A DNA stretch of 6,036 bases from a virus. Numbering within the stretch: the stretch's first letter is position 1; every line of letters begins with the position of its first letter. The DNA lies in the IMG/VR virus record IMGVR_UViG_3300045988_006460, positions 1 through 6,036 of that record; one strand, given 5' to 3'. The position numbers were made by a program, and so were the translations under genes. This document shows, one piece after another, positions 1-6,036 of the stretch. The notes below the pieces were generated by a model. It was given only the letters and a program-made list of their open reading frames with translations. It did not search any database and was not told the origin of the DNA.

Positions 1-119
1 ATTTTTTTTGTAACGTATCCTGCAACATATCTATAGGTTTCCGGTGTTGCTTGTGCTATCTGGATTTGACCCATTCCCCATAGGTTGCACATCCATTTGC
101 TTGTATAATATCCGTTGTG
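1..119. repeat. Terminal direct repeat, copy 1: overlap from a circular-genome assembly, identical to 5918..6036
   Basis: Base-by-base reading shows 1..119 (attttttttgtaacgtatcctgc...tataatatccgttgtg) is identical to 5918..6036. A minus-strand reading frame runs seamlessly across the junction and reconstitutes one 340-aa VP4. The unit genome is therefore 5,917 nt. Confidence 0.95.
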
Positions 120-662
120 CCTTATTTTATAGATTTGCTCTAGGTCTGTTGGTTGCCAACCGTATAAAATCATATGATAGTGTGGTCTCGCTGTTTGCTC
201 TCCGTACTCTCCAGCACAGAAATAGCGTAGTTGGCCCCTGTAAGCCTTTCTGAGACGTTTTAAGAACTTTTGCATATCTGGATATAGCAATGTTTGCACG
301 CTCTCTGGTGCCTTTTCTCCCGGCTTCCAGACGTATTGAACCTTACGCATGATTTCACCGGTTTTAACTATCATTCCTGGTATGTGGTCATCATCATAAG
401 TTAGCGTGATAAACCACACTTCTTCTTTTGGCCATGCTCTGGCCTCTAGCTCTATGCGTGTTGTCCAGTCCTCTCTTTGCCGTATTCTGCACCCGATGCA
501 TTTTCCGCATGGTATTAGCATTACTTTTGGGTCATACATCAAATCTTCATACTTCATCTGTTTCCCGGTTAACTCAGAAAAGCGGGCGAGAGACATCACC
601 CGCCCGCTTATTTCTCTGTTTTCCGGGTTGTACAGCCTTATAAGTGGCTTGTAACAACTCAT
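1..662 (-). CDS. VP4: Replication initiation protein VP4 (rolling-circle endonuclease, phiX174 A-protein superfamily), N-terminal part, running off the window edge. It continues at 5917 on the circle.
   Basis: This ORF is absent from the track because it has no stop codon at this end of the window. My translation from the ATG at 662..660 is MSCYKPLIRLYNPENREISGRVMSLARFSELTGKQMKYEDLMYDPKVMLIPCGKCIGCRIRQREDWTTRIELEARAWPKEEVWFITLTYDDDHIPGM...LRYFCAGEYGEQTARPHYHMILYGW...SKW. This then joins MCNLWGMGQ... of the 5557..6009 ORF. It carries the Cys cluster PCGKCIGCR, RCR motif 1 FITLTY (396..413) and motif 2 HYH (174..182). An AGGAG Shine-Dalgarno lies about 10 nt upstream. The ATG overlaps the VP2 stop as ATGA (659..662). 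Confidence 0.92.
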   Translation of the reverse strand, partial: MSCYKPLIRLYNPENREISGRVMSLARFSELTGKQMKYEDLMYDPKVMLIPCGKCIGCRIRQREDWTTRIELEARAWPKEEVWFITLTYDDDHIPGMIVKTGEIMRKVQYVWKPGEKAPESVQTLLYPDMQKFLKRLRKAYRGQLRYFCAGEYGEQTARPHYHMILYGWQPTDLEQIYKIRHNGYYTSKWMCNLWGMGQIQIAQATPETYRYVAGYVTKK

Positions 663-1513
663 CTTAAATAATCTCCTGGTTTTCTTTTTTCGCCATAATC
701 TCCTGTTTTGTCTTGCGGCTTTGTGAATTCTTGCTTTCTTCCCTGTCTTGGCGTTACTTTTTCAACTGCTTTTTCGGTTGCTTTGTCGGTTTCGTTTCCG
801 ATTTCCGTTAGCGCCTTTTGCATTCCGTAAGGTGTCAAGTGCGTTTGGCTTAGCATTTGTTGCCAGCTTTGCGCCGCGTTGTACCAATCTGATTTGCTCC
901 AGCTGCTGCTGCTGTATGCGTTTGGCACAAATCCTCCGCTTCTGCTTACACCTAGCGCACTACTACTTGCAAGGCCTATACTTGCACCGCTGATTGTTCC
1001 TGCGCTGCCTCCTGGCGTGCTCGCGCCTCCGTTTGCGAATGCTAGTATTGGATTTAGCCCTGCTTTTTTCATGTCCTCTACGGCTCTTTGATAGGCTGTG
1101 CTTGACATTCTTTCTTGCCATTCCCTATTTTTCATGGCTTCGGTGCTATTAAAATTCATTGCCGCCGTGTTCTCGATGTGGTTATAAATGCCTTGTGCAA
1201 TTGCGCTTAAAGTGTTATAGCCCATTTGTTTTAACATGGAACCGCTGTTAAATTGACTTTGCCTTTCTGCTTCGCCTGCTTGGTATTGGTAGGCACCTTC
1301 TAGCCACTTTTGCACTTGTTCGATGTTCGTTCCTGCTTGGCTTCCGCTTTCTGAATGTCCTCCGCCTTGGCTTACACTGCCGCCTTGGCTTTGTGAATTT
1401 CCTGTCTGTCCCCATCCACCGAATGCGCCGCCTATGTTTTTTACTGCTCCTGCAATGCTTCCTATTGCGTTGGCTCCTGCGCCAATCATTGACATAATGC
1501 TTAATGGATCCAT
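659..1513 (-). CDS. VP2: Minor capsid / DNA pilot protein VP2
   Basis: The ORF is 284 aa and lies directly downstream of VP1. Its N-terminus is Gly/Ala/Ser-rich and glycine-zipper-like (MIGAGANAIGSIAGAVKNIGGAFGG), followed by low-complexity GS/Q sequence. The motif REWQERMSSTAYQRAVEDMKKAGLNPILA matches the conserved TAYQR...D...AGLNP block I recognise from gokushovirus VP2 proteins. Confidence 0.85.
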   Translation of the reverse strand: MDPLSIMSMIGAGANAIGSIAGAVKNIGGAFGGWGQTGNSQSQGGSVSQGGGHSESGSQAGTNIEQVQKWLEGAYQYQAGEAERQSQFNSGSMLKQMGYNTLSAIAQGIYNHIENTAAMNFNSTEAMKNREWQERMSSTAYQRAVEDMKKAGLNPILAFANGGASTPGGSAGTISGASIGLASSSALGVSRSGGFVPNAYSSSSWSKSDWYNAAQSWQQMLSQTHLTPYGMQKALTEIGNETDKATEKAVEKVTPRQGRKQEFTKPQDKTGDYGEKRKPGDYLR

Positions 1514-1521
1514 TTTAAAAT

Positions 1522-1541
1522 AGCCCGGATTTCTCCGGGCT
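1522..1541 (-). terminator. GC-rich hairpin with a GNRA tetraloop between VP1 and VP2: putative partial intrinsic terminator and mRNA structure
   Basis: The minus strand reads A-GCCCGGA-GAAA-TCCGGGC-T, an 8-bp stem with a GAAA loop. It is followed immediately by ATTTTAAA and then the VP2 ATG. The hairpin begins 10 nt after the VP1 stop codon. Confidence 0.5.
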
Positions 1542-1542
1542 T

Positions 1543-1550
1543 CCTCCTTT
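1543..1550 (-). promoter_or_regulatory. Shine-Dalgarno AAAGGAGG, displaced about 29 nt from the VP2 start by the intervening hairpin
   Basis: The minus strand reads TAA-G-AAAGGAGGAA-hairpin-TATTTTAAA-ATG. No other SD-like sequence lies between the hairpin and the ATG at 1513. Confidence 0.5.
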
Positions 1551-1551
1551 C

Positions 1552-3249
1552 TTACAGTTTATACAGGCCCGGCACGCTATACAATGGCATCCGTCGCGTG
1601 GTTTTGTTTGCCACTCGCACGGCTCCAAAGAATTGCGGTTCGCTCTGGACGATTAATGTTCTTGCAATCTCCGCTTTGCCTTCTGCCATCCATTCCTGGC
1701 TGAGTGTTGGAACAGTGCTGTATACATCAGCATAATGCCAGAAATCCAGTGTACCGGTGGCGTTGCTTCTCATTAGTCCAGATACCCGGTTTGGCTTCAT
1801 GCGGTAGTCTGCCCACGCTTCTTGATAGCCGAAAGTTTCCTCATCGGTCGTATCGCCTGTGAGCATGATTTCTTTCTTTTTTACCGGCTGTTCGCCTAAA
1901 TTTGCAAACTGTGGCACATAATAGTCAAGTCTGTCGCGTCTGCTCCAGAATCGTTCTAATCCCTGTTGGTAGCTTCGGTTGTGTCGTACACACGCAACAC
2001 CGATTACAAACCCGTGTTCTTCAAAACTCTTTGTGAATGAGCTTTCTCTGATAGGTGTTACGGACACTGCACCCGTTTCACCGATGGGAGTGTCGTTTTC
2101 CGTCTGCTGGCCGCTCGTCTGTACAATCTGGTTAACGTTGACTTGGTATCTGCCGCCTCCCAGATATTCCGGAATTTGTACTGTTTTGTCACTGATGGTT
2201 ACATCCCACAGTGCGCGTACCTGTTCGCGGTACCGGCTGCCGCCTCTAGCCAGCGTTTCATAGTACTGCTGCACTGCAATGGCCTGCCGCAACTCGTTTA
2301 TGGTCGTTGCTTCGATGCCGTGCAGATTTGTGTACAGGTTTCCACTTACGATGTAATTACCGCTTGGGCCTACTGTATATTCGCTGCCTTCGACGCCTGC
2401 TAATTCAACTGCTCCAGCTTTACCGTCCCAATAGCGATTGAACGCTCTGCCTGCTGCCGTTTTCGTTGGCGAGTTAAACCAAATTTGTTCGTTTTCTGCA
2501 TATGGTTCTACTTTACCGTTTACTAGATTGCCAATTATCACCGGTGCGTCACCGCTTAGGCTGATTGTTACCTCTGGCCCGCGCTGTGGATAAGGTAGAC
2601 AGCTGGTAAAATAGTCATGGTACTTGTTCACCGGTAGCAGATTTCCGCCCAACACTGCATTTTGCAGGTCTTTTTCTAGCGTTTCCGTTGCTTCTGCGTT
2701 GAATTTGTATGTCACATTTGCGTCATCGCTTTTCAAAACTGCCGCGTTGTCTATGTTTTCGTCTCTAAAAAATTCATTCCAGATTTTGACATATGCCCGG
2801 ATAGGCAATGCGTTGATGCTGAACGGTTTTTTGATTTTCGTAGGCACACCCATATAGTCCAGAATAGACCTCTCATCTGGTGCCGGTTTTGCTTCTGTGC
2901 CGTTGATATTGATTTGCGGCACTGTATATGCTTTTGTTGGCATCCACGGCGTTTCCTCAACTTCACCCATGAAGTTTTTGAAGCTGTCCCACAAGATTCG
3001 GTTCGGTGTGTAGAAGTAATAGAAGTCGATGAATGCATCGTCCATGACTGGATATTTCGGCGTGCTCATGCGGATGATTGCCGTTGTGTCTACCTGGAAA
3101 GTGTCTCCCGGAAGCACTTCATCCACGAAAAACGGAATCAGTTTTCCGGAATCAAATGTGGTTAAAATTGTCTGGTCGCGATTAAATCTCGTTCGGCTTG
3201 CGTGCATTTCCGGGATTTGAAGGAAATGCCTTTCATTATTTCTGTTCAT
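1552..3249 (-). CDS. VP1: Major capsid protein VP1 (Microviridae F-protein family)
   Basis: The ORF is 565 aa. Its N-terminus, MNRNNERHFLQIPEMHASRTRFNRDQTILTTFDSGKLIPFFVDEVLPGDTF, has the hallmark microvirus capsid signature (R..F...H...TTFD.G.L.P....EVLPGD.F). The size is typical of gokushovirus-like VP1. A GGAGGAAG SD lies 4 nt upstream of the ATG. The start overlaps the VP3 stop by 14 nt. Confidence 0.95.
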   Translation of the reverse strand: MNRNNERHFLQIPEMHASRTRFNRDQTILTTFDSGKLIPFFVDEVLPGDTFQVDTTAIIRMSTPKYPVMDDAFIDFYYFYTPNRILWDSFKNFMGEVEETPWMPTKAYTVPQININGTEAKPAPDERSILDYMGVPTKIKKPFSINALPIRAYVKIWNEFFRDENIDNAAVLKSDDANVTYKFNAEATETLEKDLQNAVLGGNLLPVNKYHDYFTSCLPYPQRGPEVTISLSGDAPVIIGNLVNGKVEPYAENEQIWFNSPTKTAAGRAFNRYWDGKAGAVELAGVEGSEYTVGPSGNYIVSGNLYTNLHGIEATTINELRQAIAVQQYYETLARGGSRYREQVRALWDVTISDKTVQIPEYLGGGRYQVNVNQIVQTSGQQTENDTPIGETGAVSVTPIRESSFTKSFEEHGFVIGVACVRHNRSYQQGLERFWSRRDRLDYYVPQFANLGEQPVKKKEIMLTGDTTDEETFGYQEAWADYRMKPNRVSGLMRSNATGTLDFWHYADVYSTVPTLSQEWMAEGKAEIARTLIVQSEPQFFGAVRVANKTTRRMPLYSVPGLYKL

Positions 3250-3640
3250 TTGCTTCCTCCGTCTTTTCCTGCGCGGTTTCCTGCGCTTTCTTCAGTTCTT
3301 CTAGCTTCATGGCGTTTACCTGTGCCGTTGCCATCATCTGGTGATACTCGTGCACGTTCTGCGGCCATCCGGTAATATCCTTGATAGGCGTTTCTTCCTT
3401 GGATAGCGCTCCCTGTGACAGACTTGCCATAAAGGCCGGGTCGAAACTCGCTTTTCTCACGATGTTTTTGATGTCGCATTCGTCTGCATAGCTTTCAATT
3501 TCGGCCTGCACGTCGATGCTTTCGGTTTCCTGTAGGTACTCTTGGCCGTCCTTATCTTTTGCCCAGACGTATTGTTTCCGTTCGTTTTTGCCCGGTTCGG
3601 AAAAGAGGGGCTTTCGCCCCTCCTCATATCGTTTATTCAT
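3236..3640 (-). CDS. VP3: Putative internal scaffolding protein VP3 (134 aa from the ATG at 3640)
   Basis: The gene sits immediately upstream of, and overlaps, VP1. It is small with an acidic, helical C-terminus (KLEELKKAQETAQEKTEEANEQK). The ECDIKNIVRK segment resembles the E.DIN.I..R block of gokushovirus VP3 as I remember it. I prefer the start at 3640 (MNKRYEEGRK...) because a GGGAGGG SD lies 8 nt upstream and this ATG overlaps the stop of the preceding gene by 8 nt. The ORF-track start at 3700 has no SD. Confidence 0.55.
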   Translation of the reverse strand: MNKRYEEGRKPLFSEPGKNERKQYVWAKDKDGQEYLQETESIDVQAEIESYADECDIKNIVRKASFDPAFMASLSQGALSKEETPIKDITGWPQNVHEYHQMMATAQVNAMKLEELKKAQETAQEKTEEANEQK

Positions 3641-3872
3641 GTGGCTTGCCCTCCCACACTTTTTCTTTGTCGTTCTGGAAGGTTCCCAGTTCATCCTCAA
3701 AGTCGGCCAATTTAAAGCCGGTGTAGTCCTGCGGACTCTGGCCGATAAATGTTTTTTCGTCCTTGGCCATCACATTGCACATTCGCGCAAAGGTTGCGTT
3801 GTTTTTGCTCTCGCCTACCCATGCATAGCATTTTGCTACGTCGTCCCAGATGCCGTAATATGCGTGAATCAT
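3633..3872 (-). CDS. Hypothetical protein, 79 aa, possibly the small conserved non-structural protein seen in many gokushoviruses
   Basis: The start is ATG with an AAAGGA SD 8 nt upstream, and the gene is packed tightly between its neighbours. The pattern YYGIWDD...ATFARMCN...QDYTGFKLADFEDELG resembles a Y.I.D...A.R.F...DY.L..[IL]G.[FY]D..G family I recall from gokushovirus genomes. This was not verified. Confidence 0.55.
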   Translation of the reverse strand: MIHAYYGIWDDVAKCYAWVGESKNNATFARMCNVMAKDEKTFIGQSPQDYTGFKLADFEDELGTFQNDKEKVWEGKPHE

Positions 3873-3888
3873 TGTTTTTGTCCTTTCT

Positions 3889-3990
3889 TTACAGCCGGAT
3901 GCCCCCGCGCATGGGCTTTTGGCTCAGGTTGATACTCTTGGTTTTTCGCGCGGTGACGTTGAACATGCGCTTATCCTTTCGCATATTCAT
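3889..3990 (-). CDS. Small, highly basic peptide of 33 aa: candidate DNA-condensing/packaging protein, analogous to phiX174 J or gokushovirus ORF8
   Basis: The ORF is below the track cutoff. My translation is MNMRKDKRMFNVTARKTKSINLSQKPMRGGIRL, with 10 K/R and 1 D. It fills the gap between the 75-aa gene (stop codon at 3995..3997) and the 79-aa gene (start at 3872), and its stop codon abuts the next gene's SD. Its own SD is weak: AAGAAG is adjacent to the first ATG and 6 nt from the ATG at 3984. Confidence 0.45.
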   Translation of the reverse strand: MNMRKDKRMFNVTARKTKSINLSQKPMRGGIRL

Positions 3991-3994
3991 CTTC

Positions 3995-4222
3995 TTACGA
4001 TATGCCATTGTAAAATCCCCTTCTGATAAGTTCAAGCTCGATTGCATTTGTAAAGCTCTTTAAGTGCCAGATTTCGTCTAGCATCTTCTTTGCGGTTTCT
4101 ATGTCCGCTATCTTGCGCAAGAGCTTATATTGCGCGTCTATCTCTTTGTATTTTTTTTCGAGAATGCTTCTCAATTCATCTTCGGTCTGGTCTCTGACGT
4201 TCCAGCTTTTGTGTAAGGGCAT
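3995..4222 (-). CDS. Hypothetical protein, 75 aa, predicted helical
   Basis: The start is ATG with a strong GAAGGAG SD 7 nt upstream. The gene is on the same strand as its neighbours and tightly packed. I recognise no motif in it. Confidence 0.6.
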   Translation of the reverse strand: MPLHKSWNVRDQTEDELRSILEKKYKEIDAQYKLLRKIADIETAKKMLDEIWHLKSFTNAIELELIRRGFYNGIS

Positions 4223-4227
4223 GTTTG

Positions 4228-4344
4228 TTACTCCTTCTCGTTCGCCGCGTCCTTAAGCGCGTGATAGATTTCATCGAGCTTTTCAAGAATGTCCATCATG
4301 AGCTTGACGGCCTGTTTGACGTCCTTCACACTAATCAGTGTCAT
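4228..4344 (-). CDS. Hypothetical small protein, 38 aa, an amphipathic helix
   Basis: The ORF is below the track cutoff. My translation is MTLISVKDVKQAVKLMMDILEKLDEIYHALKDAANEKE. An AAGGGAG SD lies 7 nt upstream. The ATG comes 2 nt after the peptidase stop codon. Its last codons (GAG AAG GAG TAA) form the SD of the next gene. Confidence 0.5.
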   Translation of the reverse strand: MTLISVKDVKQAVKLMMDILEKLDEIYHALKDAANEKE

Positions 4345-4346
4345 GG

Positions 4347-4730
4347 TTATACTCCCTTTCTATATTTGTTTTCGCGCACGTCAATGTGTACGAAATTAGT
4401 ATATCGGATGACCCCGCCTTTGTCAAGTATGTTATCTGCATATTTTGCGACTTCTTTTGAACTGTGTCCTTTCACTACGATATCCGCCGCCATTCCTTTG
4501 CAGTGATATGAGTTCCCTGCGCCGTTTACTTTTGCGTTGTGGCTTGGCGTTCTGTAGCCGCTGTTAATCGTACAAGGTGCATTGAAATGATTTCTAATCT
4601 TCTCCAGTGTTTCCAGTAGCTCTGTGCATAGGAGTAGTTCAAAACTTCCGTCTTTACACGCAAATTCTTTCGCCTCAAAGTGTTCACTCACCTTTCCGAA
4701 ATCTCTGTTAATGAAGTTAATGTGTTTCAT
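4347..4730 (-). CDS. Zinc D-Ala-D-Ala carboxypeptidase-like peptidoglycan hydrolase (peptidase M15 / LAS fold, M15A-like)
   Basis: The ORF is 127 aa. It carries SGYR (aa 57-60), an H-x6-D motif (H76CKGMAAD83) and a C-terminal FVHID (H115, D117). This is the Zn-ligand arrangement of LAS/M15 enzymes. An AAGGAG SD lies 8 nt upstream. There is no N-terminal signal peptide or TM segment. Confidence 0.85.
   Translation of the reverse strand: MKHINFINRDFGKVSEHFEAKEFACKDGSFELLLCTELLETLEKIRNHFNAPCTINSGYRTPSHNAKVNGAGNSYHCKGMAADIVVKGHSSKEVAKYADNILDKGGVIRYTNFVHIDVRENKYRKGV
4398..4426 (-). promoter_or_regulatory. Candidate internal promoter inside the peptidase gene
   Basis: The minus strand reads TTGACA (4421..4426), an exact 17-nt spacer, then TATACT (4398..4403). 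It would start transcripts about 45 nt upstream of the 38-aa ORF. Confidence 0.4.
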
Positions 4731-4917
4731 TGTTTTGCTCCTTTTCGGTGAAGTACAGTGCCACTTTTTCTACTTTGTACAGTGAGTACAGACCCGGGTG
4801 CCTGTTTGCGTAATCTTTCGCTTTCTGCTTTGCGCATTTCGGTTCCTCGTTCATTTTCAATACGGTGGTCATGGTGTCGTCATCGTTCCAGCTTCTCAGC
4901 TCGTATCTGTGCTTCAT
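4717..4917 (-). CDS. Hypothetical protein, 66 aa from the ATG at 4917, first gene after the promoter
   Basis: The ORF-track start at 4926 is a GTG sitting directly against the SD. The ATG at 4917 lies 8 nt downstream of AAGGAAGG, so I prefer it (MKHRYELRSWNDDD...). The gene overlaps the peptidase start by 14 nt. Confidence 0.55.
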   Translation of the reverse strand: MKHRYELRSWNDDDTMTTVLKMNEEPKCAKQKAKDYANRHPGLYSLYKVEKVALYFTEKEQNNETH

Positions 4918-4944
4918 TTTTAGCACCTTCCTTTCTGTGATTAT

Positions 4945-4973
4945 ATTCTATCATATTTTTAGGTTTTTGTCAA
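4945..4973 (-). promoter_or_regulatory. Near-consensus sigma70/sigmaA-type promoter with an extended -10 and an upstream A/T tract
   Basis: The minus strand reads AAAATTTTTTCAAAAAAGAC-TTGACA-(17 nt)-TGA-TAGAAT. The -35 TTGACA is at 4968..4973, the TG at 4952..4953 and the -10 TAGAAT at 4945..4950. A second TATAAT at 4940..4945 overlaps it. The first gene's SD and ATG follow about 20-30 nt downstream. Confidence 0.75.
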
Positions 4974-5013
4974 GTCTTTTTTGAAAAAATTTTAGAAAAC
5001 TTTTCCTAGGATA

Positions 5014-5091
5014 GGAGCGCCATTAAACTCCCCGCTGCAGCGGCTCCTTTTGATAAGACCGGCAAGGCCGGTCAGACTGTTGGTGCGCTCC
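5014..5091. other. 78-nt closed multi-stem element, with a three-way-junction-like potential fold
   Basis: The outer 7-bp stem pairs GGAGCGC (5014..5020) with GCGCTCC (5085..5091). It encloses the perfect 12-nt palindrome CCGCTGCAGCGG (5032..5043) and the hairpin GACCGGC-AAG-GCCGGTC (5057..5073). It lies about 40 nt upstream of the promoter -35 element. Confidence 0.45.
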
Positions 5092-5135
5092 GTTAGACTT
5101 TGCCTTCACCGCTCACTCTGTTTTATTGGCCGTTC

Positions 5136-5270
5136 TTTTCAACTTTTCCACATTGTTAAACTTTAGCACAACAGAGCATTTCAACAATTCAACAAGTTTT
5201 CAACATTTCTTTTAACAGTACTTTCTTTTATAAAGAAACGTTATTGTGTTATTTTTTAATGGTTTTCAAC
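5136..5270. repeat. AT-rich block with five copies of TTCAAC(A), which reads GTTGAA on the gene strand
   Basis: TTCAAC occurs at 5138, 5180, 5188, 5199 and 5265. The middle three copies are spaced 8 and 11 nt apart. The 9-mer CAACAAGTT occurs twice (5190..5198 and 5299..5307). TTTTCCACA at 5144..5152 fits the relaxed DnaA-box consensus TTWTNCACA. Confidence 0.5.
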
Positions 5271-5312
5271 TTTTTAACTACCTCTACTACTACGACTACA
5301 ACAAGTTAATAA

Positions 5313-5364
5313 ATATATGCGCGTGCGTGCGTGCGCGTCTACGTGCGCGTATGCGCGCGCATAC
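5313..5364. repeat. Alternating purine-pyrimidine (CG/TG/TA) tract, Z-DNA-prone, which is also an imperfect palindrome
   Basis: Strict R/Y alternation holds across 5313..5338 and again across 5340..5364, with a single phase slip at c5339. The arm 5316..5338 can pair with 5341..5363 at 23 positions, giving 18 Watson-Crick pairs and 5 G-T pairs. The tract includes the perfect palindrome TATGCGCGCGCATA (5350..5363). Confidence 0.8.
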
Positions 5365-5386
5365 CTTTGAGCGCTTTAGCGCGAAC

Positions 5387-5449
5387 CGGCACCGGATAGG
5401 TGCCGTGCCAATAGGGGGCACGGGGGACGCGAGCGGAACGCGGCCCCCG
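5387..5449. other. Three abutting GC-rich hairpins
   Basis: H1 is CGGCACC-GGATA-GGTGCCG (5387..5405). H2 is GTGCC-AATAGGG-GGCAC (5405..5421). H3 is CGGGGG-A-CGCG-AGCGGAA-CGCG-G-CCCCCG (5421..5449), with 10 bp and one A/G mismatch. On the plus strand H3 is followed by GATTTCTTGATAATTTC. Confidence 0.6.
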
Positions 5450-5490
5450 GATTTCTTGATAATTTCAATCACTGAATAGGCTGATACATG

Positions 5491-5507
5491 GAGCCTTTAA
5501 ACGGCTC
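5491..5507. other. Small hairpin GAGCC-TTTAAAC-GGCTC
   Basis: It has a 5-bp stem and a 7-nt loop, and it abuts the 14-bp hairpin at 5507..5542. Confidence 0.4.
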
Positions 5508-5542
5508 TGGCCCAGTACCTTACTTGATAGGTACTGGGCCAG
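5507..5542 (-). terminator. Perfect 14-bp hairpin 14 nt downstream of the VP4 stop: putative transcription terminator or ssDNA structural signal
   Basis: CTGGCCCAGTACCT (5507..5520) pairs perfectly with AGGTACTGGGCCAG (5529..5542) around the 8-nt loop TACTTGAT. No clear U-tract follows on either strand, so its function as an intrinsic terminator is uncertain. Confidence 0.45.
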
Positions 5543-5556
5543 GTGACACCAAAATC

Positions 5557-6036
5557 TTATAAACCGCCTTTTTGGAGTTTTACAGACTTTTTGACAACTC
5601 TTTCTTTTGTTTTTAAGTTCTCTGCGAAATCTGCATTTTCATACTTGAGCCGGTTTTGTTCGATTACTGCTTTCTGTCGGTTCCTCTTGATTCTCCATAA
5701 CCGTTCTGGATTTTCTGCTTCCATCATTTTTTCATAATATCGTGGAATTTGTGCTTGTTTTCCGTTGGTGCACTGGATATAGCCTTTTTTCCATATTTCT
5801 TCCTTGTGTTCTTGATAGTAGGAATCGCCTAGGCCCGGCTTCAGACTCATGCATGCAAATGGTTTCTGCTGGCCTAACTCGTAATACACGTTTGCTTTCT
5901 GGCCGTCAATTTCGTACATTTTTTTTGTAACGTATCCTGCAACATATCTATAGGTTTCCGGTGTTGCTTGTGCTATCTGGATTTGACCCATTCCCCATAG
6001 GTTGCACATCCATTTGCTTGTATAATATCCGTTGTG
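5557..6036 (-). CDS. VP4: Replication initiation protein VP4, C-terminal part. The full protein is 340 aa across the circular junction.
   Basis: The frame is continuous with 1..662 through the 119-nt overlap. It contains the two-tyrosine RCR motif 3, YVAGYVTKK (5920..5946, also present at 3..29), which closely resembles the active-site YVAKYVNK of the phiX174 A protein as I recall it. The stop is TAA at 5557..5559. The Met at 6009 in the ORF track is internal. Confidence 0.92.
   Translation of the reverse strand, partial: HNGYYTSKWMCNLWGMGQIQIAQATPETYRYVAGYVTKKMYEIDGQKANVYYELGQQKPFACMSLKPGLGDSYYQEHKEEIWKKGYIQCTNGKQAQIPRYYEKMMEAENPERLWRIKRNRQKAVIEQNRLKYENADFAENLKTKERVVKKSVKLQKGGL
5918..6036. 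repeat. Terminal direct repeat, copy 2 (identical to 1..119)
   Basis: Same as copy 1. This is a redundancy from linearising a circle, not a biological repeat. Confidence 0.95.

Follow-up and report, generated by a model that had tools for sequence, protein, structure and literature searches.

A strand-specific CG/TG hairpin in the origin region of gut gokushoviruses, and signs that these viruses may package the strand antisense to their genes

The IMG/VR record IMGVR_UViG_3300045988_006460 (positions 1 to 6,036, the whole of which is referred to here as the window) is the circular genome of a gokushovirus (Microviridae), 5917 nt long and given as 6036 nt with a terminal redundancy of 119 nt. 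Its recognisable genes are all on the minus strand. Inside the sole long non-coding region (~4918-5556), between the stop codon of VP4 and a promoter-like site at 4973-4945 (−), lies a tract of alternating CG and TG steps (5313-5364), followed on the plus strand by a hairpin that resembles a rolling-circle origin. We propose, at about even confidence, that the tract is a strand-specific DNA hairpin in the replication-origin region, which would act on the displaced and packaged strand, antisense to the genes. The broader reading, on which we are evenly divided, is that the gut clade of the window and several environmental lineages are negative-sense microviruses with an inverted origin cassette, in which the tract is the virion-strand hairpin of a complementary-strand origin and perhaps also a Z-DNA switch.

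The tract consists of two arms of perfect purine/pyrimidine alternation, 26 and 25 nt long, split by a single phase slip (Table 1). The original prediction, made from the letters of the window, held such runs to be improbable by chance, and this is borne out. The second-longest alternating run in the genome is 12 nt, and a run of at least 25 nt arose in none of 2000 first-order Markov simulations (simulated maximum 21). The dinucleotides of the tract are CG (12), GC (12), TG (6) and GT (6), and Tandem Repeats Finder reports period-4 and period-12 units in it. Z-DNA formation is favoured by uninterrupted alternation, mainly of CG and CA/TG steps, over at least ~12 bp; both runs are of this kind, and the earlier description of the tract as Z-DNA-prone by sequence rules holds.

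The same sequence can fold back on itself, and a repeat search finds inverted arms of 28 nt that are 75% complementary and 2 nt apart. On the plus strand the hairpin has 22 pairs (17 Watson-Crick and five G-T), and all of its non-canonical pairs are G-T, as had been noted. The hairpin had been put at 23 positions; the fold itself stands, while the 23rd pair (T5338-A5341) is infeasible and would leave a 2-nt loop. As DNA the plus strand folds at −21.7 kcal/mol (z −2.9 vs shuffled sequences) and as RNA at −41.5 kcal/mol (z −4.9). The minus strand gives −13.7 kcal/mol as DNA (z +0.45) and, in what would be the coding-sense RNA, −24.4 kcal/mol (z +0.43), which in both cases is no better than shuffled.

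Scanning IMG/VR with the motif adjoining the tract, TACTACNNCTACAACAAGTTA, returned 119 genomes, or 120 with the window. A bipartite (YG)n-loop-(YG)n tract was found in 87 of the 120, with 65 distinct tract sequences. The layout in these relatives is ~20 nt of alternation, a break of 0-6 nt and again ~20 nt of alternation, and the loop differs among them (TCTA, TTTA, TTTC, CTAT, ATTA, ACTTTT). An equivalent tract occupies the same place in GenBank relatives from human, pig and monkey faeces, and a degenerate pattern scan recovered the bipartite element, often with a TTTC loop, also from non-gut microvirus contigs of 4.2-5.4 kb. Two near-identical genomes (L048 and L065) carry a 52-nt tract identical to that of the window, and two more (L101 and L111) differ from it by transitions only, at equal length. 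Because near-identical genomes and many independent assemblies carry the tract, a chimeric insertion, which the original prediction had named as a possible refutation, is excluded; its occurrence in GenBank genomes of several laboratories and in many IMG/VR samples likewise excludes an assembly artefact.

As both arms are (YG)n on the plus strand, some self-pairing that includes G-T is automatic, and the test is whether pairing exceeds that baseline. Over the 65 tracts the in-register pairs are G-C (856), G-T (264) and A-T (134), with 22 mismatches, and in the hairpin register A stands opposite T in 134 cases and opposite C in 14. Watson-Crick pairs number 990, against 823 ± 11 when the base identities of the left arm are permuted, and none of 1000 permutations reaches the observed value. 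RNAalifold, run on 41 tracts, returns 18 pairs, 10 of them with compensatory changes (CG<->UA or GC<->AU), and A-C cells number only 6. The suspicion that the G-T bias might be merely compositional is contradicted by the excess of Watson-Crick pairs and by these compensatory changes. The ratio of G-T to A-C (264:14) is above the ~3:1 expected from mutational bias, and selection for pairing is therefore still needed. The YG strand is the more stable strand in 64 of the 65 tracts. Pairing is thus selected beyond composition, and on the YG strand only. Structure kept on one strand only is what a single-strand origin calls for, and stability, wobble counts and compensation all show it here, on a strand that would be the displaced one. 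The neighbouring hairpins of the window are strand-symmetric, and the wobble asymmetry is therefore specific to the tract.

Alternation is clearly constrained too. Across 41 variants, the 18 stem columns contain no purine/pyrimidine swap, and all substitutions are transitions. The stem of the neighbouring origin-like hairpin swaps purines and pyrimidines freely, a comparison for qualitative use, as it was anchored at the loop only and register errors inflate the swaps.

The origin-like hairpin has its nearest known counterpart in the viral-strand origin of phiX174, which is no such counterpart for the tract. The phiX174 origin (30 nt, nick G4305/A4306) reads CAACTTG^ATATTAATAACACTATAGACCAC and is like the loop and flank of the window hairpin (ACTTG^ATA ... 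GACACC). The core ACTTGATA is identical in the two, and a GAC(A)CC element follows 17-18 nt on in both. By analogy, the window would be nicked between G5526 and A5527 on the plus strand. Unlike in phiX174, the gokushovirus core forms part of a hairpin loop, above a stem of 9-15 bp, and in the window clade it lies opposite the gene strand. This hairpin architecture is widespread in gokushoviruses (e.g., GGGCACAGTTAC-TCACTTGATG-TAACTGTGCCC-ACTGACACCA); a loop-motif scan detected it in 217 of 302 genomes and in none of the other 85. With an ACTTGAT loop and a TGACACC flank it is near-universal in the group (e.g., L126 and L184-L334). The coding strand bears it in Chlamydia phage Chp2 (L126, ~2905-2950) and in 83 environmental genomes, which are most of the environmental ones, and the non-coding strand bears it throughout the window clade and in a few independent genomes from the environment.

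Tract and hairpin keep a fixed polarity. In an extended gut-clade set, in which some contigs are present twice, the YG strand is the non-coding strand in 121 of 121 tracts, and 113 of 113 records place the origin-like hairpin 3' of the tract, on that strand and at a distance of 18-190 nt. A single-strand origin is a non-coding site close to the nick origin, and such a placement is found throughout the gut clade; the exceptions, L257 and L360, are outside it. Two relatives whose VP4 is 84-85% identical to that of the window (L009 and L052) keep (CG/CA)n on the coding strand despite inverted TTTTCAACA-type repeats and an inverted CTA motif. In a distant clade (VP4 ~38% identical) the non-coding region lies between VP2 and VP4, and the tract polarity is unchanged. 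Among 115 distinct tract-bearing genomes, the 111 with A-rich synonymous sites have the YG strand as the non-coding one, and the four with T-rich synonymous sites (L257, L360, L374 and L408) have it as the coding one, with no discordant genome. In L408 a hairpin with a ACTGACACC flank lies ~190 nt 3' of the tract, all on the coding strand.

The composition of four-fold sites on the coding strand suggests which strand is exposed as single-stranded DNA (ssDNA). In the window these sites have A at 0.40-0.59 and T at 0.08-0.16, which is the mirror image of phiX174 (A 0.05-0.14, T 0.49-0.65), Chp2 (A 0.16-0.26, T 0.51-0.53) and SpV4 (A 0.28, T 0.65). The NNT preference of ssDNA phages has been ascribed to deamination (C->T) of the genome in its single-stranded form (PMC3278643). 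We polarised changes at VP1 four-fold sites with outgroups. Where the hairpin is on the non-coding strand, G>A outnumbers C>T on the coding strand by a factor of 2.2-2.9 (p 1e-12 to 1e-24), and A>G equals T>C; a mutational cause is therefore favoured over codon preference. Where the hairpin is on the coding strand, the asymmetry is reversed (ratio 1.2-2.0, p = 2.5e-4 in the largest set). Four environmental genomes with the inverted hairpin (L226, L232, L291 and L315) represent independent flips, and each of them is richer in A than the closest neighbours of sense orientation. The wobble polarity of the tract marks the strand that behaves as ssDNA, and agrees in this with hairpin orientation, synonymous skew and C->T excess. 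In the window clade the single-stranded (packaged) strand appears, from these sequence signatures, to be the plus strand, antisense to the genes. The original prediction had taken the gene strand to be the packaged one, which the hairpin, the skew and the C->T excess indicate is probably wrong in this clade.

In the mechanism that we propose, VP4 would nick the plus strand at the origin-like hairpin, and this strand would then be displaced and packaged; we assign these roles to the plus strand because it bears the phiX174-like loop and flank. The tract hairpin would form while the plus strand is single-stranded, the two (YG)n arms zipping into a ~20-bp GC-rich stem. C->T damage, dominant on ssDNA, would turn C-G pairs into tolerated T-G wobbles, which compensatory G->A changes would later mend. 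Most likely the tract would be part of a single-strand (complementary-strand) origin, where it would give the incoming, SSB-coated DNA a stable island of duplex and so mark the assembly site of host priming factors; alternatively, it might help the origin to refold when a rolling-circle round ends. Strict alternation may reflect a second use at the duplex stage through the Z-DNA potential of the arms. The tract is placed between the origin-like hairpin and a DnaA-box/trio-like module, amid other hairpins, a setting that speaks for a part in replication.

Several points weigh against this proposal. Microviridae are described as positive-sense, and the strand assignment is drawn from mutational signatures and from likeness of sequence. 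The tract is missing in roughly a quarter to a third of the related genomes (e.g., L007, L008 and L010), and given these relatives it is dispensable or replaceable. The sequences are phylogenetically related, so the counts overstate independence, and the controls for the substitution spectrum are few (3-25 triplets). The DNA-level z of the window tract is only modest. Outside the gut clade the arrangement varies, the hairpin being 5' of the tract in L360 and the two being far apart in L257. Finally, if the tract is only a hairpin, its strict purine/pyrimidine alternation is unaccounted for.

Alternation is the strength of a reading that we find doubtful as a replacement, namely that the tract acts as Z-DNA in the supercoiled duplex replicative form, where one or both arms would flip, absorb supercoils and modulate the AT-rich element, the origin hairpin or transcription that runs on out of VP4. 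Both arms alternate perfectly and keep alternating through all substitutions, unlike the stem of the origin-like hairpin, and in the window the tract directly adjoins AT-rich DNA. For a 5.9-kb circle we roughly estimate the B-Z transition of either arm at sigma ~−0.04, before cruciform extrusion at ~−0.075, with Z-DNA parameters that are reportedly those of Ho et al. 1986 and Peck & Wang. By this estimate Z-DNA would be a more accessible non-B state than the cruciform in the replicative form, and it is the only known property that would need strict alternation. Unconstrained supercoiling in vivo is, however, ~−0.03 and may fall below the estimated threshold. Z-DNA is moreover strand-symmetric, and leaves unexplained why TG always falls on one strand with respect to the origin hairpin (in 115 of 115 genomes), why a centre of 3-6 nt that does not alternate is kept, and why the arms are matched and pair A with T in register. 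In relatives with the inverted module the tract is not beside the AT-rich element. Z-DNA is possible as a second function of the tract; it cannot be the whole story.

That the hairpin works as RNA, in a plus-strand (antisense) transcript that would be either a primer RNA made on the template or a small antisense RNA heading for the VP4 3' end, is unlikely. As RNA the plus strand folds better than shuffles (z −4.9, against +0.43 for the coding sense), G-U pairs usually point to structured RNA, and in several relatives a TATAAT lies 5-10 nt upstream of the tract on the plus strand. This TATAAT is, however, without a −35 element, and a promoter scan calls nothing there on the plus strand. The upstream sequence is wholly different in the genomes with the inverted module, and the polarity of their tracts is the same. 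The hairpin is not followed by a U-rich tail on the plus strand, and ssDNA accounts for the substitution and skew data without RNA. Rfam 15 gives no family at the gathering threshold in the window or in 20 relatives, and the microRNA matches are generic hairpins. The best bacterial Rfam match is Clostridiales-1 RNA (22.2 bits vs a gathering threshold of 48, E ~0.01, window 5302-5458 (+)), which is probably a generic multi-hairpin resemblance.

We also give little credence to a functionless, slippage-prone CG/TG microsatellite that decays by C->T on the single-stranded genome. Its period-4 and period-12 units would suit such an origin, the C->T bias on that strand is real, and a fraction of the relatives is without the tract. 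Against it, the bipartite layout with its central loop is kept in more than 100 genomes, down to ~38% VP4 identity and in non-gut lineages too. The G-T to A-C ratio exceeds the mutational bias, and 134 A-T pairs are compensated. In the window, L048, L065, L101 and L111 the tract is of equal length and changes by transitions only.

A cruciform in the duplex replicative form, with hairpins on both strands, is highly improbable. The inverted arms are close together and long enough to raise it, but 5 of the 22-23 positions are non-complementary in the duplex, and the hairpin of the minus strand would carry A-C mismatches. A cruciform calls for a near-perfect duplex palindrome; the arms are only 75% complementary, and the minus strand folds like its shuffles. 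In nearest-neighbour energies, with the minimum-free-energy value used for the minus strand since A-C pairs are unparameterised, extrusion of the 52-bp tract would cost ~49 kcal/mol, whereas the same arms made into a perfect palindrome would need 11. The mismatches have, besides, been held on one strand by evolution and not removed. Nor is there much to recommend an intrinsic terminator, or an RNA stabiliser, where the VP4 transcription unit ends, for which the tract is rightly placed downstream of the VP4 stop, with AUAUAUUUAUU next in the coding sense, but which would call for a stable GC-rich hairpin and a U run in the transcript sense: there the RNA folds like shuffles, A-C mismatches take up 22% of the stem positions, the terminator scan leaves the tract uncalled, and relatives with the inverted module (e.g., L037) have no U-rich tail.

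The complementary-strand origins known from ssDNA replicons include the PriA/n' hairpin of phiX174, the primase hairpins of G4, the minus-strand origin of M13, ssoA-type origins of rolling-circle plasmids and the 'dnaA box in a hairpin' A-site of the ABC primosome. The tract is like them in being a strand-specific non-coding hairpin of a rolling-circle replicon, beside the double-strand origin and among clustered hairpins. Such origins work only in the displaced strand, a likeness that the tract would share if the plus strand is displaced. In some relatives it also lies beside a hairpin with DnaA boxes. Unlike these origins, it has no sequence similarity to them, its stem alone is strictly alternating CG/TG, and it is dispensable in some lineages. 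The phiX174 case is also cited in a study of small microviruses, the reekeekee- and roodoodooviruses, which have conserved intergenic hairpins near Rep with compensatory changes, proposed as complementary-strand initiation sites (PMC9865509). Those hairpins differ from the tract in clade and sequence, are non-alternating and come without a strand-polarity argument.

On the Z-DNA side, the tract is like inserts in supercoiled plasmids in being a CG/TG-rich alternating tract of 18-26 bp per arm, with a transition predicted at moderate negative supercoiling. Inserts of d(CG)n and d(TG)n that form Z-DNA have been studied in such plasmids. Unlike them, the tract is bipartite with a loop-like break, has a fixed polarity and shows covariation, and it is known from sequence alone. 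Hairpins are expected in the non-coding regions of ssDNA phages. A full-text literature search found nothing that links gokushoviruses or microviruses with Z-DNA or DnaA boxes, and no description of a gokushovirus origin hairpin. The literature search likewise returned no strictly alternating CG/TG hairpin of this kind and no Z-DNA function in a microvirus.

The proposed strand inversion, which concerns phages abundant in human and animal guts, is more surprising than the tract itself. If true, the Microviridae would not all be positive-sense, as has been assumed, and the virion strand of metagenomic microvirus genomes could be assigned by a simple sequence rule. It would also define an origin region (nick hairpin, tract and DnaA-box/trio module) for a group without a cultured member. 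The tract is, in addition, a natural test case for a role of Z-DNA-prone sequence in a bacterial virus.

Table 1. Position and strand of the tract, its neighbouring elements and the genes of the window.
Feature	Position	Strand	Remarks
Left arm of tract	5313..5338	+	26-nt perfect purine/pyrimidine run, ATATAT then (CG/TG)n; 5316-5337 pair with right arm
Hairpin loop of tract	5338..5341	+	TCTA; holds phase slip C5339
Right arm of tract	5340..5364	+	25-nt perfect alternating run; 5342-5363 pair with left arm
Origin-like hairpin	5507..5550	+	14-bp perfect stem 5507-5520/5529-5542; loop TTACTTGA; 3' flank GTGACACC (5543-5550)
Loop of origin-like hairpin, by strand			+ CTTACTTGATAG; − CTATCAAGTAAG
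Loop-bearing sequence of origin-like hairpin			+ strand CCTTACTTGATAGG; − strand CCTATCAAGTAAGG
Variable GC-rich insert	5365..5505	+	~140 nt, between tract and origin-like hairpin
AT-rich stretch	5305-5318	+	GTTAATAAATATAT; abuts tract
Trinucleotide array	5284-5304	+	CTA CTA CTA CGA CTA CAA CAA
Same-direction repeats	5136..5281	+	TTTTCAAC(A/T) and TTTTCCACA; DnaA-box-like (TTWTNCACA, 0-2 mismatches)
VP1	1552-3249	−	
VP2	659-1513	−	
VP4/Rep	5557 through circular junction to 662 (3' part 5557..6036)	−	340 aa
Peptidase M15 homologue	4347-4730	−	
66-aa open reading frame	4917-4717	−	

Between the tract and the origin-like hairpin, the insert can form four or five Watson-Crick hairpins that are equally good on both strands (z about −4.5). 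Two relatives (KT264792 and MG945383) are without this insert, and others carry unrelated GC-rich hairpin inserts in its stead; one such replacement reads GCGACAGCCCC...GGGGCGCTGTCGC, with AAGGGGG...CCCCCTT. The interval looks like a hotspot for the gain and loss of hairpin modules.

On the other side of the tract, the array and the AT-rich stretch resemble the DnaA-trio and unwinding element of Firmicutes. The basal unwinding system of a bacterial oriC consists of a DnaA box (at most 2 mismatches) no more than 16 bp from at least three NAN trios (3'-GAT-5'), followed by AT-rich DNA (PMC8287927). The window module reads TTTTCAACT TTTTAACTA CCT (CTA)3 CGA CTA CAA CAA and then becomes AT-rich, with the boxes as candidate DnaA sites, and its CTA array resembles the DnaA-trio of Clostridioides difficile (CACCTACTACTATTACTACTATGA). 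Genome-wide, matches to the DnaA box number 18 vs 13.4 expected, which is no enrichment. The repeat/trio module is strongly conserved even between clades with a VP4 identity of only ~38%, and in some close relatives (L009 and L052) it is inverted relative to the tract and the genes. This inversion rules out a model in which the hairpin forms on the strand freed by a DnaA filament, and it rules out a Rep nick site in the coding-strand motif TATTAACTTGTTGTAG, which is inverted in the same two genomes. The motif adjoining the tract, AAGTTAATAAATATAT, was also considered as a dif/Xer site; by eye it has no convincing match to the dif sites of Escherichia coli and Bacillus subtilis.

One IMG/VR contig (L105), whose module reads TTTTCAACT TTTCCACAT CCC (CTA)5, has the trio motif, the AT-rich stretch and the tract duplicated, and so carries two tracts in one genome. 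The duplication is seen ~110 nt upstream and 44 nt downstream of the motif. In two environmental genomes (L344 and L368) a hairpin ~70 nt from the tract has TTATCCAC DnaA boxes in its stem. On the non-coding strand it reads GCTTATCCACGGGTTGTCCAC-TTTA-GTGGGCAACCGGTGGATAAGC, is 3.7-4.7 kcal/mol more stable there, and is reminiscent of the 'dnaA box in a hairpin' type of ssDNA priming signal.

A scan of genome contigs with the trio motif, aimed at a host oriC or prophage, gave one phage-sized contig (L336), one chance match that looks coding and two contigs (L335 and L338) from archaeal metagenome-assembled genomes, and assigned no host. The phage-sized contig (CAVKUS010000079.1, 5739 nt) is binned in the 'Bacteroides sp. 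CAG:545' metagenome-assembled genome; as host evidence this is weak, and a 5.7-kb contig may be mis-binned.

The ends of the window are an exact direct repeat of 119 nt (1-119 = 5918-6036), which reflects the assembly overlap of a circle, and open reading frames that cross the ends, such as VP4, appear split until the sequence is circularised. The VP4 stop codon is 6 nt from the flank of the origin-like hairpin. At the far end of the non-coding region, the promoter-like site is a strong sigma-70-like match (TTGACA, 17 nt, TAGAAT, with an upstream TG; 11/12). It lies just upstream of the 66-aa open reading frame and is probably the promoter of the gene array.

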